From: Mobula hypostoma
Taxonomy: Eukaryota
Assembly (NCBI RefSeq): GCF_963921235.1
Contig: NC_086097.1
Coordinates: 108,688,001-108,752,000 of the forward strand
Direction of reading: 5' to 3'
Length of the DNA stretch: 64,000 nt
The notes beneath the pieces are model-generated. The model was given only the letters and a program-made list of their open reading frames with translations. It had not been told where the DNA came from and searched no databases. Below are positions 3,684-60,016 of this stretch, piece by piece (positions within the stretch are counted from its first letter, which is position 1; every line of letters starts with the position of its first letter). The position numbers and the translations under genes are program-made.

Positions 3684-4756
3684 CATAGAAACATAGAAAA
3701 TAGGTGCAGGAGTAGGCCATTCGGCCCTTCGAGCCTGCACCGCCATTTATTATGATCATGGCTGATCATCCAACTCAGAACCCAGCCTTCCCTCTATACC
3801 CCCTGACCCCTGTAGCCACAAGGGCCATATCTAACTTCCTCTTAAACACAGCCAATGAACCGGCCTCAACAGTTTGCTGTGGCAGAGAATTCCACAGATT
3901 CACCACTCTCTGTGTGAAGAAGTTTTTCCTAATCTCGGTCCTAAAAGGCTTCCCCTCTATCCTCAAACTGTGACCCCTCGTTCTGGACCTCCCCAACATC
4001 GGGAACAATCTTCCCGCATCTAGCCTGTCCAATCCCTTTAGGATCTTATACGTTTCAATCAGATCCCCCCTCAATCTTCTAAATTCCAACGAGTACAAGC
4101 CCAGTTCATCCAGTCTTTCTTCATATGAAAGACCTGCCATCCCAGGAATCAATCTGGTGAACCCTCTTTGTACTCCCTCTATGGCAAAGATGTCTTTCCT
4201 CAGATTAGGGGACCAAAACTGCACACAATACTCCAGGTGTGGTCTCACCAAGGCCTTGTACAACTGCAGTAGTACCTCCCTGCTCCTGTACTCGAATCCT
4301 CTCGCTATAAATGCCAGCATACCGTTCGCCTTTTTCACCGCCTGCTGTACCTGCATGCCCACTTTCAATGACTGGTGTATAATGACACCCAGGTCTCGTT
4401 GCACCTCCCCTTTTCCTAATCGGCCACCATTCAGATAATAATCTGTTTTCCTATTTTTGCCACCAAAGTGGATAACTTCACATTTATCCACATTAAATTG
4501 CATCTGCCATGAGTTTGCCCACTCACCCAACCTATCCAAGTCACCCTGCATCCTCTTAGCATCCTCCTCACTGCTAACACTGCCACCCAGCTTCGTGTCA
4601 TCCGCAAACTTGGAGATGCTGCATTTAATTCCCTCATCCAAGTCATTAATATATATTGTAAACAACTGGGGTCCCAGCACTGAGCCTTGCGGTACCCCAC
4701 TAGTCACCGCCTGCCATTCTGAAAAGGTCCCGTTTATTCCCACTCTTTGCTTCCTG
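3684..4756 (-). mobile_element. Young 5'-truncated CR1 LINE (RT C-terminal half)
   Basis: Uninterrupted ORF 3775-4756 with [10 protein letters not shown] and FADD. (ATAGAAAC)n tail. Nearly identical to the 3' part of 46486-49951. Confidence 0.95.
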
Positions 4757-5316
4757 TTGTTTGGTGAGGAAAGATTTTTGTGAGTAAATTGATCAGTGCT
4801 AGACAGCACGATTGCTAAGTTCCTTAATTGGCCTACCAGCGTGAGCGAGGAGAACTCATTTCAAGGTCTAGCCTATATGTGTTTGGAAGTTAAGCATATG
4901 TGTGTCAAATGTGAGTGACCTATTTATCATGTGCAGGTGGTTCTAGCAGACTCACCACTCTGGCTACAGTGGAACTATTTAGTGATGCTACAGTATAGTT
5001 TGGTATTGTTCGTGGTGATTTTTTGCAGTGTGAAATGGGCTTCAGCCTGTGCAATCCACATGGTAGCATGCTACTCCCAAAATGGCGCAGCTTCAAGTTA
5101 CAGTGTGTTGTTTAGTAACTCCGGGATCGCCTAAGTCGTTTTACGTGCTTAACAAAAGCCAGAGCCCTTTACTTCCATTACAAACCAACCAAAAGCAGTC
5201 GCCTTTCACTGATGTCATTATGCCAGACACTGTCTCAATGAAGGCAATTATGAATTATGTAGAACAGTTTAAATTATGAACAATTTGTGTCATCTGTCAC
5301 CTATTACATTACTCTA

Positions 5317-5513
5317 GGGGTGTATGGGGTGTCAGGGAGGGGTAGCACCTCTGGTGGGGGAACATGTCGCATCCATTTCAGGGCGGTTAGTCCATCTTTG
5401 GTCCCCACCTGGCACTCCACCTGTGGCTCCCACCTGTGGCTCCCCGTAGCTGTTTGCATGTGACAGTGGCCACACCCCGGGCAACGGCTTCAACAAGCCG
5501 GCTAAACCAGGTG
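5317..5513 (+). ncRNA. HDV-like self-cleaving ribozyme fold
   Basis: P1 GGGGUGU 5317-5323 / ACACCCC 5472-5478. P2 CACCUG 5431-5436 / CAGGUG 5508-5513. P3 GGC 5438-5440 / GCC 5469-5471. L3 UCCCCGUA. P1.1 GG 5479-5480. P4 CGGCUU/AAGCCG. J4/2 GCUAA with candidate catalytic C5502. Confidence 0.7.
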
Positions 5514-5886
5514 AGGGTAGCCGACAGGTCTCAAACCCTCGGTGAGATAGGGAGTTGTCTATCCCAGCATGTGAAGACAGACTCTGGCGGATTGAGCGGA
5601 CGAGACCAGTGGAAGGTCCAACAGTCAAGAAGGCGGTCTCTGCAAGCGTTGTGGAACGTTTAGAGCAGGACAAGGCGCAGAAGACGTCCTGGTCATCCAC
5701 TGCGCCTAGTCCCATCTCCAGCTGTCTCGATTCTGTCTTGCCACTGGATCCAGATGGGAATTGGGAAGAGAGGGTGAGGCTGACGCTGCGCAATGCTCCC
5801 TCACTTAAATCCAAATCACGTACTAGTCTTGACACCATCACAATGGTGTTAAGGTCCTCATCGATGTCGACGATGGATGAACACAC
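5317..5886 (+). mobile_element. Non-autonomous RTE-like retroposon with a 5' HDV-like ribozyme and (CA)n tail
   Basis: 11-bp TSD ACATTAC(T/C)CTA (5306-5316 / 5887-5897). GC-rich structured 5' half, no intact ORF, short-repeat tail. The RTE affinity is inferred. Confidence 0.65.
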
Positions 5887-7809
5887 ACATTACCCTACAA
5901 TAGAAAAATGAAGGGCTATATAGGAGGGAAGGGTTAGATTGATCTTAGAGTAGGTTTTAAGGTCAGCACAACATCATGCGCTGAAGGGCCTGTACTGTGC
6001 TGTATTGTTCTATGTTTTATGTGAGTATATCTCTTAGTGAGATGAGATGTATTTATTCATATTTTCAATGTGTATAATGTACACGGTTGGTGGGATTCTA
6101 ATGTTGTTTGTATTGTTTTTTAGAATTGCCACTACCGTATTGGTTTTGTATATTTTGTTTTAGTTATTTTCGTAATGCATACGTAACAAGGGTGTAGTCT
6201 GAAGTTAAGATGAGAATGTAATAGCGGGAACTGTTTTTCTTATTTATTTTGTCGATTTTATTTTGATACCCTCTTTCTGCAATAAAACATCTAAAACAGA
6301 TAAAGGAATTTAATACACGAAAAAGTATTTGTTGTCTTGCATGTGTATTTTTCCCCAGGCTGCATGTACCAGTAAAATCCCTTAGGATTCTCCTTCATCT
6401 TGTCATGCCGCCTTTTTGCCTTCCTGATTTCTTTCATAAGCGTTCTCTTGCATCTTTGTACTCCATAAGCACCTCATTTGTTCCTACTTGCATTATCTGC
6501 TATGAAGCTCCTTTTTTTCTCATAACCAGGGCCTCAATATCTCTAGAAAACCAAAGTTCCCTACACTTGTTATACTTACCTTTTATTCTGACAGGCACAT
6601 ACAAGCTCTGTACTCTCAAAATTTCATATTTGAAGCCCTCACACTTTCCAAGTACACCTTTGACAGAAAACAGCTTGTCCCAATCCACACTTGCCAGATC
6701 ATTTCCATTACCTTCAAAATTGAATATTAACCCACAGACCAGACATATTTTCTATGAAACTAATGGCTTTGTGGTCATTGGATGCAAAGGGTTCCCCTAC
6801 ACAAACTTCTGTTACCTGCCCTGTCTCATTCCCTAATAGCAGTTCCAGTATCGCACTCTCTCTTGTTGGGACTTCTGCATACTGATGAAGGAAACTTTCT
6901 CGACCAGATTTGACAATCTCTATCCCATCTAGTCCTTTTACAGTACGGGATTCCCAGTCAATATGTGGAAAGCTAAAATCACCTACTATAACAGCCTTAC
7001 ATTTCTTGCAGCGGTCTGTGATCTCTTTACAAATTTGTTCCTCCAAGTCCCTCGGACTGTTGGATTGTCTGTAATATAGCCCTATTAATGTGGTCATACC
7101 TTTCTCATTTTTTATTGCCACCCATAACACCTCACTAGTTGAGTTCTCCAGTCTGTCCTGACGAAGCAGTATTTTCCCTGACTAGTAATGCCTCCCACTC
7201 TGTCAGGTCTAAAACAACAGAACTACAGAATACTGAGTTGCCAGTCCTGCCCCTCGTGCAACCAAGTCTCACTAATGACATTTAACTTGTTTTATTATTG
7301 TCACATGTACTGAGGTACAGTGAAAACTTGTCTTGCAAACTGTTCATACTAATCGATTCATTATAAGTGTGTTGAGTAGAACAGAGAATAGAACAATAGC
7401 AAAATGTCAAAAAAGTGCTATAGTTACAGAGAAAGTGTAGTGCGGGCAGATAGTATGGTGCAAGGTCACAACAACATAAACTGTGAGGCCAAGAGTCCAT
7501 CTTATTTTACTAGGGAAGTATTCAATAGTCCTATAATAGTGGAATAAATCTGTTCTTGACCCTGGTGGTTTTATCCTTCGGGATTTTTTTTTATCTCTGC
7601 CTAATGGAGGAGAGAGAAGAGAACATTTCTGGGGTGGGTGGGGTCTTTAATTATGTTGGCTGTTTAGCCATGGAAGTGAGAAGTCTAGGCAGAGTCAATG
7701 AAAGGGAGATTGGTTTCTGTGATCTCTTAAAGATGAGTAATAGTGTTCATAATTTTATGGACTATTCAGAAATGTAATGGTGGAGAGGAAGAAACTGTTT
7801 TTAAATATT

Positions 7810-46585: not shown

Positions 46586-49585
46586 TCAGAACCCAGCCTT
46601 CCCTCCATACCCCCTGACCCCTGTAGCCACAAGGGCCATATCTAACTTCCTTTTAAACATAGCTAATGAACTGGCCTCAACAGTTTGCTGTGGCAGAGAA
46701 TTCCACAGATTCACCACTCTCTGTGTGAAGAAGTTTTTCCTAACCTCGGTCCTAAAAGGCTTCCCCTCTATCCTCAAACTGTGACCCCTCGTTCTAGACC
46801 TCCCCAACATCGGGAACAATCTTCCCGCATCTAGCCTGTCCAATCCCTTTAGGATCTTATACGTTTCAATCAGATCCCCCCTCAATCTTCTAAATTCCAA
46901 CGAGTACAAGCCCAGTTCATCCAGTCTTTCTTCATATGAAAGACCTGCCATCCCAGGAATCAATCTGGTGAACCTTCTTTGTACTCCCTCTATGGCAAGG
47001 ATGTCTTTCCTCAGATTAGGGGACCAAAACTGCACACAATACTCCAGGTGTGGTCTCACCAAGGCCTTGTACAACTGCAGTAGTACCTCCCTGCTCCTGT
47101 ACTCGAATCCTCTCGCTATAAATGCCAGCATACCGTTCGCCTTTTTCACCGCCTGCTGTACCTGCATGCCCACTTTCAATGACTGGTGTATAATGACACC
47201 CAGGTCTCGTTGCACCTCCCCTTTTCCTAATCGGCCACCATTCAGATAATAATCTGTTTTCCTATTTTTGCCACCAAAGTGGATAACTTCACATTTATCC
47301 ACATTAAATTGCATCTGCCATGAGTTTGCCCACTCACCCAACCTATCCAAGTCACCCTGCATCCTCTTAGCATCCTCCTCACTGCTAACACTGCCACCCA
47401 GCTTTGTGTCATCCGCAAACTTGGAGATGCTGCATTTAATTCCCTCATCCAAGTCATTAATATATATTGTAAACAACTGGGGTCCCAGCACTGAGCCTTG
47501 CGGTACCCCACTAGTCACCGCCTGCCATTCTGAAAAGGTCCCGTTTATTCCCACTCTTTGCTTCCTGTCTGCTAACCAATTCTCCACCCACACCAATACC
47601 TTACCCCCAATACCGTGTGCTTTAAGTTTGCACACTAATCTCCTATGTGGGACCTTGTCAAAAGCCTTTTGAAAATCCAAATATACCACATCCACTGGTT
47701 CTCCCCTATCCACTCTACTAGTTACATCCTCAAAAAATTCTATGAGATTCGTCAGACATGATTTTCCTTTCACAAATCCATGCTGACTTTGTCCGATCAT
47801 TTCACCGCTTTCCAAATGTGCTGTTATCACATCCTTGATAACTGACTCCAGCAGTTTCCCCACCACCGACGTTAGGCTAACCGGCCTATAATTCCCCGGT
47901 TTCTCTCTCCCTCCTTTTTTAAAAAGTGGGGTTACATTAGCCACCCTCCAATCCTCAGGAACTAGTCCAGAATCTAACGAGTTTTGAAAAATTATCACTA
48001 ATGCATCCACTATTTCTTGGGCCACTTCCTTAAGCACTCTGGGATGCAGACCATCTGGCCCTGGGGATTTATCTGCCTTCAATCCCTTCAATTTACCTAA
48101 CACCACTTCCCTACTAACATGTATTTCGCTCAGTTCCTCCATCTCACTGGACCCTCTGTCCCTTACTATTTCTGGAAGATTATTTATGTCCTCCTTAGTG
48201 AAGACAGAACCAAAGTAATTATTCAATTGGTCTGCCATGTCCTTGCTCCCCATAATCAATTCACCTGTTTCTGTTTGCAGGGGACCTACATTTGTCTTTA
48301 TCAGTCTTTTCCTTTTTACATATCTATAAAAGCTTTTACAGTCCGTTTTTATGTTCTCTGCCAGTTTTCTCTCATAATCTTTTTTCCCCTTCCTAATTAA
48401 GCCCTTTGTCCTCCTCTGCTGAACTCTGAATTTCTCCCAGTCCTCAGGTGAGCCACTTTCTCTGGCTAATTTGTATGCTACTTCTTTGGAATTGATACTA
48501 TCCCTAATTTCTCTTGTCAGCCACGGGTGCACTACCTTCCTTGATTTATTCTTTTGCCAAACTGGGATGAACAATTGTTGTAGTTCATCCATGCAACCTT
48601 TAAATGCCTGCCATTGCATATCCACCGTCAATCCTTGAAGTGTCATTTGCCAGTCTATCTTAGCTAATTCATGTCTCATACCTTCAAAGTTACCCCTCTT
48701 TAAGTTCAGAACCTTTGTTTCTGAATTAACTACGTCACTCTCCATGTTAATGAAGAATTCCACCATATTATGGTCACTCTTACCCAAGGGGCCTCTCACG
48801 ACAAGATTGCTAATTAACCCTTCCTCATTGCTCAAAACCCAGTCCAGAATAGCCTGCTCTCTAGTCGGTTCCTCGACATGTTGGTTCAAAAAACCATCCC
48901 GCATACATTCCAAGAAATCCTCTTCCTCAGCACCTTTACCAATTTGGTTCACCCAGTCTACATGTAGATTGAAGTCACCCATTATAACTGCTGTTCCTTT
49001 ACTGCACACATTTCTAATTTCCTGTTTAATACCATCTCCGACCTCACTACTACTGTTAGGTGGCCTGTACACAACTCCCACCAGCGTCTTCTGCCCCTTA
49101 GTGTTACGCAGCTCTACCCATATCGATTCCACATCTTCCCGGCTTATGTCCTTCCTTTCTATTGCGTTAATCTCTTTTTTAACCAGCAACGCCACCCCAC
49201 CTCCCCTTCCTTCGTGTCTATCCCTCCTGAATATTGAATATCCCTGAACGTTGAGCTCCCATCCCTGGTCACCCTGGAGCCATGTCTCTGTGATCCCAAC
49301 TATATCATAATCATTAATAACAATCTGCACTTTCAATTCATCCACCTTATTACGAATGCTCCTTGCATTGACACATAAAGCCTTCAGGCGCTCTTTTACA
49401 ACTCTCTTAGCCCTTTTTAATGCTTGCCCTGGATTTGTCGGCCTGCCACTTTTACTTTTCCCCTTTGTACTTTTTGCTTCTACGCTCACTTTACACCCCT
49501 CTGTCTCTCTGCACTGGTTCCCATCCCTCTGTTGTGAACTAACCTCCTCACACCTAGCCGCTTTAATTTGATTCCCACCCCCCAA
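46586..49585 (-). CDS. CR1 ORF2 protein: APE endonuclease plus reverse transcriptase (~999 aa, uninterrupted)
   Basis: NARS, GITETW, VYRPP, GDFN and SDH (APE). [21 protein letters not shown] and FADD (RT). True start codon uncertain. Confidence 0.93.
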   Translation of the reverse strand: MGGGNQIKAARCEEVSSQQRDGNQCRETEGCKVSVEAKSTKGKSKSGRPTNPGQALKRAKRVVKERLKALCVNARSIRNKVDELKVQIVINDYDIVGITETWLQGDQGWELNVQGYSIFRRDRHEGRGGGVALLVKKEINAIERKDISREDVESIWVELRNTKGQKTLVGVVYRPPNSSSEVGDGIKQEIRNVCSKGTAVIMGDFNLHVDWVNQIGKGAEEEDFLECMRDGFLNQHVEEPTREQAILDWVLSNEEGLISNLVVRGPLGKSDHNMVEFFINMESDVVNSETKVLNLKRGNFEGMRHELAKIDWQMTLQGLTVDMQWQAFKGCMDELQQLFIPVWQKNKSRKVVHPWLTREIRDSINSKEVAYKLARESGSPEDWEKFRVQQRRTKGLIRKGKKDYERKLAENIKTDCKSFYRYVKRKRLIKTNVGPLQTETGELIMGSKDMADQLNNYFGSVFTKEDINNLPEIVRDRGSSEMEELSEIHVSREVVLGKLKGLKADKSPGPDGLHPRVLKEVAQEIVDALVIIFQNSLDSGLVPEDWRVANVTPLFKKGGREKPGNYRPVSLTSVVGKLLESVIKDVITAHLESGEMIGQSQHGFVKGKSCLTNLIEFFEDVTSRVDRGEPVDVVYLDFQKAFDKVPHRRLVCKLKAHGIGGKVLVWVENWLADRKQRVGINGTFSEWQAVTSGVPQGSVLGPQLFTIYINDLDEGIKCSISKFADDTKLGGSVSSEEDAKRMQGDLDRLGEWANSWQMQFNVDKCEVIHFGGKNRKTDYYLNGGRLGKGEVQRDLGVIIHQSLKVGMQVQQAVKKANGMLAFIARGFEYRSREVLLQLYKALVRPHLEYCVQFWSPNLRKDILAIEGVQRRFTRLIPGMAGLSYEERLDELGLYSLEFRRLRGDLIETYKILKGLDRLDAGRLFPMLGRSRTRGHSLRIEGKPFRTEVRKNFFTQRVVNLWNSLPQQTVEASSLAMFKRKLDMALVATGVRGYGGKAGF

Positions 49586-49590
49586 CCATT

Positions 49591-49951
49591 CTAGTTTAAA
49601 GTCACCTCAGTAGTCCCCGCTAATCTCCCTGCCAGGATATTGGTCCCCCTAGGATTTAAGTGTAACACGTCCTTTTTGTACAGGTCACACCTGCGCCAAA
49701 AGAGGTCCCAATGATCCAAAAACTTGAATCCCTGCCCCCTGCTCCAATCCCTCAGCCACGCATTTATCCTCCACCTCATTGCACTTCTACTCTCACTGTC
49801 GCGTGGCACAGGCAGTAATCCCGAGATTACTACCTTTGCGGTCCTTTTTCTCAACTCCCTTCCTAGCTCCCTATATTCTTCTTTCAGGACCTCATCCCTT
49901 TTCCTACCTATGTCATTGGTACCTATATGTACCAGGACCTCTGGCTCTTCA
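49591..49951 (-). pseudogene. CR1 ORF1 C-terminal fragment, SGNH/GDSL esterase-like
   Basis: VVISGLLPVPR...FLDHWDLF...DxLHLNPRG block typical of CR1 ORF1 esterases. 5' truncated. Confidence 0.8.

Positions 49952-55861: not shown

Positions 55862-60016
<4,155 letters not shown>

Follow-up and report, generated by a model that had tools for sequence, protein, structure and literature searches.

A short RTE-derived element of Mobula hypostoma whose head is a probable HDV-like ribozyme with a hairpin in L3

The window, by which we mean the whole stretch of 64,000 nucleotides that was analysed, contains on its plus strand a non-autonomous RTE-derived element flanked by target site duplications (TSDs), the head of which can be laid out as an HDV-like ribozyme. 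The features of this locus are as follows:

5306-5316 (+), 5' TSD, ACATTACTCTA, identical to 5887-5897 at 10/11 positions
5317-5886 (+), the whole non-autonomous RTE-derived element, 93.3% to the family consensus, decayed
5317-5323 (+), 5' strand of P1, GGGGTGT; G5317 is G1 and cleavage is predicted directly 5' of it
5324-5430 (+), J1/2 with a long P1.2 stem, closing helix 5326-5336 / 5408-5418
5417-5442 (+), private 13-nt tandem duplication (5417-5429 = 5430-5442) giving a second P2/P3 5' strand, absent from the 29 other aligned copies
5431-5437 (+), 5' strand of P2, which is 11 bp in the consensus
5438-5440 (+), 5' strand of P3, GGC
5441-5468 (+), L3, 28 nt; U20 is 5441, C21 is 5442, C22 is 5443 and G25 is 5446, with the inserted hairpin after G25
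5449-5467 (+), inserted L3 hairpin, 6 bp, strands 5449-5454 / 5462-5467
5469-5478 (+), 3' strands of P3 (GCC, 5469-5471) and P1 (ACACCCC, 5472-5478)
5479-5484 (+), P1.1 GG (5479-5480) and J1.1/4 GCAA, read from the sequence
5485-5500 (+), P4, 6 bp, 5485-5490 / 5495-5500
5501-5505 (+), J4/2 GCTAA, in which C5502 is the equivalent of C75
5506-5518 (+), 3' strand of P2 with its outer extension; 5431-5437 pairs with 5506-5513 around one bulged C
5519-5840 (+), rest of the portion derived from the parent 5' UTR, 89% to parent copy L217
5830-5854 (+), hairpin at the deletion junction, made of a parent 5' UTR strand and a 3' UTR strand as seen by comparison with the parent
5842-5886 (+), parent 3' end, consisting of the 3' UTR stem-loop and an (AC)n tail, 86% to L217 4368-4409
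5887-5897 (+), 3' TSD, ACATTACCCTA, identical to 5306-5316 at 10/11 positions

Elsewhere in the window a stop-free frame of 1006 aa lies at 46586-49606 on the minus strand, and other stretches hold several broken copies; this frame resembles a CR1-type endonuclease-RT ORF, and remnants of this type would fit a cartilaginous fish. The stretch at 56934-58792, also on the minus strand, presumably holds gag/pol-like pieces of an LTR element.

A consensus of 566 nt was built from 29 other copies of the ~565-nt element. An exact core pattern returned 1,088 matches (control, 0) and a head pattern 1,488, both figures being lower bounds on the copy number. TSDs of 9-15 bp accompany 32 of the 49 full-length copies scored, and in 24 of these 32 they abut G1 or overlap it by 1-3 nt; the range given for RTE elements is about 7-15 bp (PMC6007223). 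The tails of the family are (AAC)n, (AACC)n and (AC)n. The 566-nt consensus lacks RT and endonuclease coding, an internal join having taken out the entire ORF as far as the stop codon. The initial annotation had described a SINE-like family that does not use a Pol III promoter. ARAGORN returned nothing, Rfam gave no tRNA, 5S or 7SL match, and a search for the internal boxes found no B box and one stray A-box-like match. The element is not a Pol III SINE, and the lack of a tRNA head and B box stands; instead of an independent SINE, the family proved to be an internal deletion of an RTE which keeps its parent's putative ribozyme. At locus L038 two copies lie head to tail, ~576 nt apart, the upstream one without a tail.

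Every component of the ribozyme named in the initial annotation is present at 5317-5518, in HDV order and where it had been placed: P1 from G1 directly after the TSD, then P2, P3, L3, P1.1, P4 and J4/2 nested as a double pseudoknot, the ~105-nt J1/2 closed by an 11-bp helix (two of its pairs being G-U), and the extra 6-bp hairpin between L3 and the 3' strand of P3. All positions of the HDV core are occupied as expected (G1, U20, C21, C22, G25, G38-G39 and C75), T5441 and G5446 standing for U20 and G25 in L3. P1 has 7 bp where 6-7 are expected, with G1 paired to a pyrimidine; P2 crosses P1 to make the first pseudoknot; and P4 is an optional helix of HDV-like ribozymes. The GCAA of J1.1/4 is a junction of the genomic HDV type (bioRxiv 10.1101/2022.09.22.508989), and in J4/2 the C at the catalytic position, C5502, is preceded by G5501 and followed by U-A-A. 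The exception is L3, which is 28 nt long here and 28-29 nt in relatives, against the usual 7-8 nt (TYYHCG-Y), and the structure is therefore classed as a variant that would work like an HDV ribozyme.

The copy in the window has suffered private damage. The 13-nt duplication takes the place of AGCTCT of the family and disrupts outer P2, and CpG-type decay extends to the closing pair of the L3 hairpin, which is G-U here and G-C in the consensus; the count of 6 bp for this hairpin includes one U-G. Judged from its sequence this copy is probably dead and may cleave poorly. Since it is damaged, its failure to cleave would not refute the claim for the family, in whose source copies the ribozyme is likely to be active.

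The 5' ends were counted by hand on the first 100 copies listed that have positions 10-30 intact. Seventy-eight start at G1, 13 at +2/+3, seven at +4 to +7 and two at +9/+10, with 91 of the 100 lying within 3 nt of G1. Among 21 copies picked by their core, 15 begin at G1, and among 30 loci picked by their 3' end (one a duplicate) 15 start at positions 1-4 and 15 at as many different internal points. No flank 5' of G1 is common to the copies in any of the sets examined. The pattern is that of a single sharp natural 5' end combined with ordinary 5' truncation. The copies, their TSDs and this sharp start bear out the proposal of a multi-copy non-autonomous retroposon beginning at G1, and copies extending 5' of G5317, which had been named as contrary evidence, did not appear, none of those examined sharing sequence further 5'. 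A second perfect GGGGTGT occurs at 5326, inside the J1/2 helix strand; it was considered as a major second cut site and rejected, as only 2/100 listed copies start at or next to it. A subfamily with G6A in P1 comprises L008, L009, L010, L014, L023, L024, L027 and L028, seven of the eight having an ATT linker at the junction. Its P1 mismatch (8/30 copies) is uncompensated, ACACCCC being kept in 8/8, yet it begins at G1.

T precedes G1 in 54 of the 78 copies (hand count), and U-1 is reported to give the fastest HDV cleavage (PMC1874588). An extra constant base before G1 was rejected as its source: the T at -1 belongs mostly to the TSD, the last base of which is T in 17/32, and the extra bases vary. 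One may speculate that through this T the choice of target helps the following cycle of cleavage.

Relatives were found in metagenome contigs with a pattern of 23 fixed core letters which included none of the hairpin, P1, P2 or P4 except the first C of P4. It returned 22 loci, 14 of them homologues and eight not. All 14 homologues keep the L3 hairpin, and they fall into three carrier groups, with protein identities of 22-33% from one group to another; the protein tree, with its long L120 branch, serves solely to illustrate this deep divergence. One of them, L107, has the complete organisation of an RTE, its 1109-aa frame containing endonuclease and RT domains and its 5' UTR being 79% to consensus 3-505. 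L115 and L120 carry nearly the same head as L107 on RTE lineages with 22-33% identical proteins; such like heads may reflect exchange of a module, a likeness that the search pattern inflates. Family B (L155, L163-L191), for which there are 5,160 first-look candidates and of which 29 copies were aligned, is an older non-autonomous family with the same L3-hairpin head; its P4 is compensated and its J1.1/4 reads TACA. The copies are ~77% alike to the query, the body is a different one and the tail is (ACC)n. Family B was reached by BLAST, independently of the pattern, and its consensus retains TCC-NN-G, GG and GGCTAA.

Sixteen sequences were aligned, namely 12 of the 14 homologues (the near-duplicates L118 and L124 being dropped), the window copy, L002 and two family-B copies. 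The named structure pairs 91.5% of cells and shows two-sided changes in 16/28 pairs, a value reached by 0/500 shuffles, a control that overstates support since the 16 sequences represent about three lineages and are not independent. Registers slid against it pair only 29-44% of cells. The best helix is the L3 hairpin, with two-sided changes in 6/6 pairs and 96.8% of cells paired, followed by P2 (6/11 pairs, 90% of cells) and P4 (4/6 pairs, the sixth pair being mostly unpaired); most P1.2 pairs also show two-sided changes. In P1, 93% of cells are paired and the first pair is G-C in eight sequences and G-U in three. Covariation is weak there, with one two-sided change, contributed by L107 (GTGGTGT/ACACCAC), and 51/500 shuffles as high; the alignment used misplaces two rows. 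P3 is constant as GGC/GCC in all 16, its letters being fixed by the search pattern, and does not covary. P1.1 (C21-G39, C22-G38) is present without variation in 16/16, pattern-fixed in 12 of them, and in the metagenome matches the constancy of P3, P1.1 and the likewise fixed C75 is no evidence. G25, which was absent from the pattern, is invariant in 16/16; position 24, a C in the published descriptor, is not conserved beyond the window family. The covariation proposed in the initial annotation as a check is thus found in P2, P4 and the L3 hairpin, with P1 weak and P3 and P1.1 invariant. RNAalifold recovered P1.2, P2, the hairpin and P4, and paired UGGC with GCUA of J4/2 instead of forming P3, as does the minimum free energy (MFE) fold of L002.

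The parent was located by a pattern that joined the 5' part of the element to a motif of its autonomous relatives and returned 18 loci; two earlier patterns, meant to exclude the short element, returned variants of that element only and no parent. Parent loci with long matches are 90-95% to consensus 1-~518 and then continue into remnants of an RTE-type ORF. Seven of the 18 carry the putative ribozyme of the short element and begin at position 1, seven end ~4.1 kb further on in the same tail, and none of the 18 has an intact ORF. The two ends of this ~4.1-kb LINE correspond to consensus 1-~518 and 518-566. As the short element consists of the parent's first ~517 and last ~45 bases, it is an RTE internally deleted from the 5' UTR to the stop codon. 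Two other RTE families, reached through a DUF6451 search, were rejected as the partner LINE, the 20 matches considered of 145 having no similarity to the element.

When the 20 nt that follow the stop codon were compared with the entire 4 kb of the parent, the strongest complementarity was a perfect 11-bp match where the 5' part kept by the short element ends; this held in four of the six copies scored and in 0-1 of 30 shuffles; in L217 the two strands are 819-829 and 4369-4379. A complement in the same position with different letters is found in L107 (11 bp) and in the sister LINE RTE-A (13 bp, e.g. L144), the latter duplex having one mismatch in most copies and being the top match in 7/10, though individually often within the range of shuffles. 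By eye, 9-bp complements between the UTRs also occur in RTE-1_PSi and RTE-3_AMi, in the sequences printed in PMC5786205. A scored search found the UTR-UTR pair in 12/17, a search free of gaps and mismatches in 2/10, missing the parent copies, and loose duplex folding did not single it out. The junction of the short element equals this duplex minus its 3.5-kb loop, which suggests that the deletion arose by a jump of the reverse transcriptase across the closed loop.

RTE-A was located with the L107 protein, and 20 of 127 matches were examined. It is abundant, and L144 and L145 contain frames of 1114-1116 aa. It was rejected as the parent: its similarity is confined to consensus 232-505 (76%) and the tail (84%), and it lacks the ribozyme; none of the 20 loci has one at its head, a single match at L155 being a separate family-B insertion. 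RTE-A heads are G+C-rich and mixed, with pieces of host coding sequence such as methylmalonyl-CoA epimerase (L142 722-1033; PDB E 2.5e-27) and MOSMO (L150 979-1053; 24/25 residues), or a tandem repeat. Of 12 epimerase-matching (MCEE) loci taken from 20 (L202-L213), 11 continue into the LINE, and, the query apart, the 10 MCEE-headed copies each have a different 5' end. In L203 the epimerase piece stands without the LINE, and this may be its source locus. In another RTE-A subgroup (L143, L146 and L151) the head begins with G+C-rich units of ~38 nt repeated in tandem, after which comes a TATA-like stretch; this may be a captured promoter. RTE-A fits elements that must be transcribed from outside and, if nothing trims them, retain host sequence; its ragged heads fit template-switch capture and plain truncation too. 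A further RTE family (L051, L053, L054 and L069) has a 1018-aa frame in L051, a (GAA)n tail and a structured common 5' end, which gave no match to our own ribozyme model and may be another ribozyme.

Taken together, we put at roughly 75% the probability that the short element is an internally deleted RTE whose first ~200 nt form an HDV-type ribozyme cutting before G5317, with an L3 hairpin conserved by paired changes. Transcription would start at an upstream promoter and yield a longer RNA that contains a source copy. P1 and P2 would be pinched together by P1.2 and the long P2, as in drz-Agam-2, and C5502, acting as general acid, would release an RNA that starts at G1 with a 5'-OH. An RTE protein supplied in trans would then bind the 3' stem-loop and tail and use the RNA as template for target-primed reverse transcription. 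The region around U27 faces the solvent. The hairpin would project from the core as a peripheral domain outside the chemistry, either a folding aid or a handle for protein, because its insertion point, behind G25, lies 3' of all the L3 residues of known importance; those reported as required are U20, C21, C22 and G25, and also C24 (PMC6326823), which the relatives lack. Against the ribozyme count the L3 of 28 nt in place of 7-8, the lack of covariation in P3 and P1.1 and its weakness in P1, the spread of the uncompensated G6A, the alternative UGGC/GCUA pairing and a C24 that is not conserved beyond the window family; against the preferred reading as a whole counts the absence of an intact parent ORF among 18 copies.

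A wider proposal is held tentatively, at a little under even odds: that these are members of an undescribed HDV subclass with a helical L3 domain, moved as a module among distant RTEs, in which the hairpin is functional and the UTR-UTR duplex closes the RNA and fixes the site of deletion. As part of this, the hairpin would activate or gate cleavage, or bind the RTE protein.

The sharp 5' end could instead be set by an internal Pol II promoter that starts transcription at G1, the HDV fold being secondary or part of a dual element like Pr77 of L1Tc. Bipartite LINEs are described as very likely transcribed by Pol II, with 5' extremes that drive transcription (PMC5786205), a promoter and a ribozyme can share the same 77 nt (PMC3383444), and the G6A subfamily keeps its start at G1 despite the mismatch in P1. 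However, R2 ribozymes are said to tolerate one or two mismatches at the top of P1 (PMC3774820), and a promoter leaves unexplained both the paired changes in P2, P4 and the hairpin and the coincidence of the first base with G1 of P1 in families with other P1 letters (L107). We regard this explanation as unlikely. Marginally less probable again is a fold which is real but rendered catalytically dead or weak by the hairpin in L3, serving as a protective 5' structure or a site for the RTE protein, with the end produced by exonuclease stalling or run-off of the reverse transcriptase at P1. L3 does belong to the catalytic core (PMC4908430), the HDV fold has been credited with cap-like 5' protection in R2 templates (review PMC13708176), and the alternative pairing would bury C75. 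A dead fold does not, however, account for the invariance of G25, for which no search had selected, or for the retention of the core letters in family B, a family that BLAST had found.

A descriptor of our own, combining sequence and pairing with an L3 of 18-40 nt that contains a hairpin, was composed after the motif had been seen. On both strands of the 64-kb window it has a single match, at G5317/U5441/C5502 with an L3 of 28 nt, and with an L3 of 7-8 nt it has none there. It found nothing in 3.84 Mb of Markov-resampled sequence (1.92 Mb of window composition and 1.92 Mb of element composition), and 33 of 50 family loci pass it in full. Rfam gave no HDV match at E<=10 in window 4300-7000 or at E<=5 in six loci; as a positive control, the canonical-L3 ribozyme in L110 matched RF02682 (E 0.018). 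Folding energies are no better than those of shuffles (z 0.68 for the window copy, -0.55 for L002). Chance pairing in a G+C-rich repeat head, with which these energies and the Rfam result would agree, is nevertheless largely refuted and very improbable in view of the empty random sequence, the covariation and the coincidence with the element boundary.

The published descriptor, in the available text of PMC4870747, has an L3 of TYYHCG-Y and a J1/2 of up to about 50 nt, and would therefore miss the element twice; the prediction that the L3 insertion escapes standard searches is supported for Rfam and for this descriptor. The ribozyme in L110 (1022-1094) is a canonical HDV-like one in a tRNA cluster, immediately upstream of a tRNA at 1099, and looks like a theta ribozyme. 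Sixteen matches in viral contigs were set aside as chance; a P1 complement is present in one (L140), and none fits the family model or the descriptor.

With known HDV-like ribozymes the putative one in the window shares the nested double-pseudoknot order, a cut site, here predicted, at the first base of its element, U20/C21/C22/G25, the GG of P1.1, the C-N-A-A of J4/2, a structured J1/2 (P1.2) and an extended P2. It differs from them in L3, which is 28-29 nt long and carries behind G25 a 6-bp hairpin that covaries, and in position 24, which is not a conserved C. Its architecture of structured J1/2 and long P2 matches that of drz-Agam-2, and in drz-Agam-2-1 the structured J1/2 and a 12-bp P2 have been measured to pinch the core (PMC4908430). 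R2 ribozymes vary in P1, P2, P4 and J1/4, and no L3 helix is mentioned in the accessible part of PMC3774820. In the literature searched, in which the primary surveys are incompletely covered, no report of an L3 hairpin in HDV ribozymes was found.

RTE ribozyme heads and bipartite RTE derivatives are themselves already known (PMC5786205, PMC6765202). The element resembles the bipartite RTE LINEs RTESINE2, WALLSI3, MAR4_MD and RTE-N2_Lch, as PMC5786205 describes them, in having both RTE ends, no ORF, a microsatellite tail and TSDs of 9-15 bp. By eye its body resembles RTE-1_PSi 27-196, RTE-3_AMi 147-292 and their 3' ends, and its join lies at about the same place as in WALLSI (sequences in PMC5786205). 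Unlike those elements, as far as they are presented there, the window family keeps a complete ribozyme head and has its direct parent in the same genome; it may already bear a name in a repeat collection. AviRTE was rejected as a carrier of the same head, its printed 5' ends looking different. With R2 SIDEs and NARTc/SIDER, going by the available text of PMC3414825 and PMC4035085, the family shares an internal deletion and a retained 5' HDV-like ribozyme; unlike them it belongs to another LINE clade, inserts at dispersed sites, has a vertebrate host and carries the L3 hairpin. As in Perere-3 of the RTE clade, which according to PMC8501958 has a twister T-variant, a ribozyme would set the 5' end, one of a different class in our case, HDV-like and not twister. 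The role is thus known, and the structural variant is apparently undescribed.

L3 has been treated as a fixed part of the HDV core, 7-8 nt long, and searches have been written accordingly. A natural, covarying hairpin in L3 means that current models would overlook a set of ribozymes, including thousands of copies in a vertebrate genome; for engineering, it indicates a new site for insertions. The system also offers a direct test of 5'-end formation in dispersed RTEs, whose UTRs are used in gene-writing templates (review PMC13708176). Why few LINE clades make internally deleted derivatives is called unexplained in PMC5786205, in the part available. The UTR-UTR duplex provides a testable answer to this question and, if true, would explain why RTEs have repeatedly given rise to bipartite derivatives.
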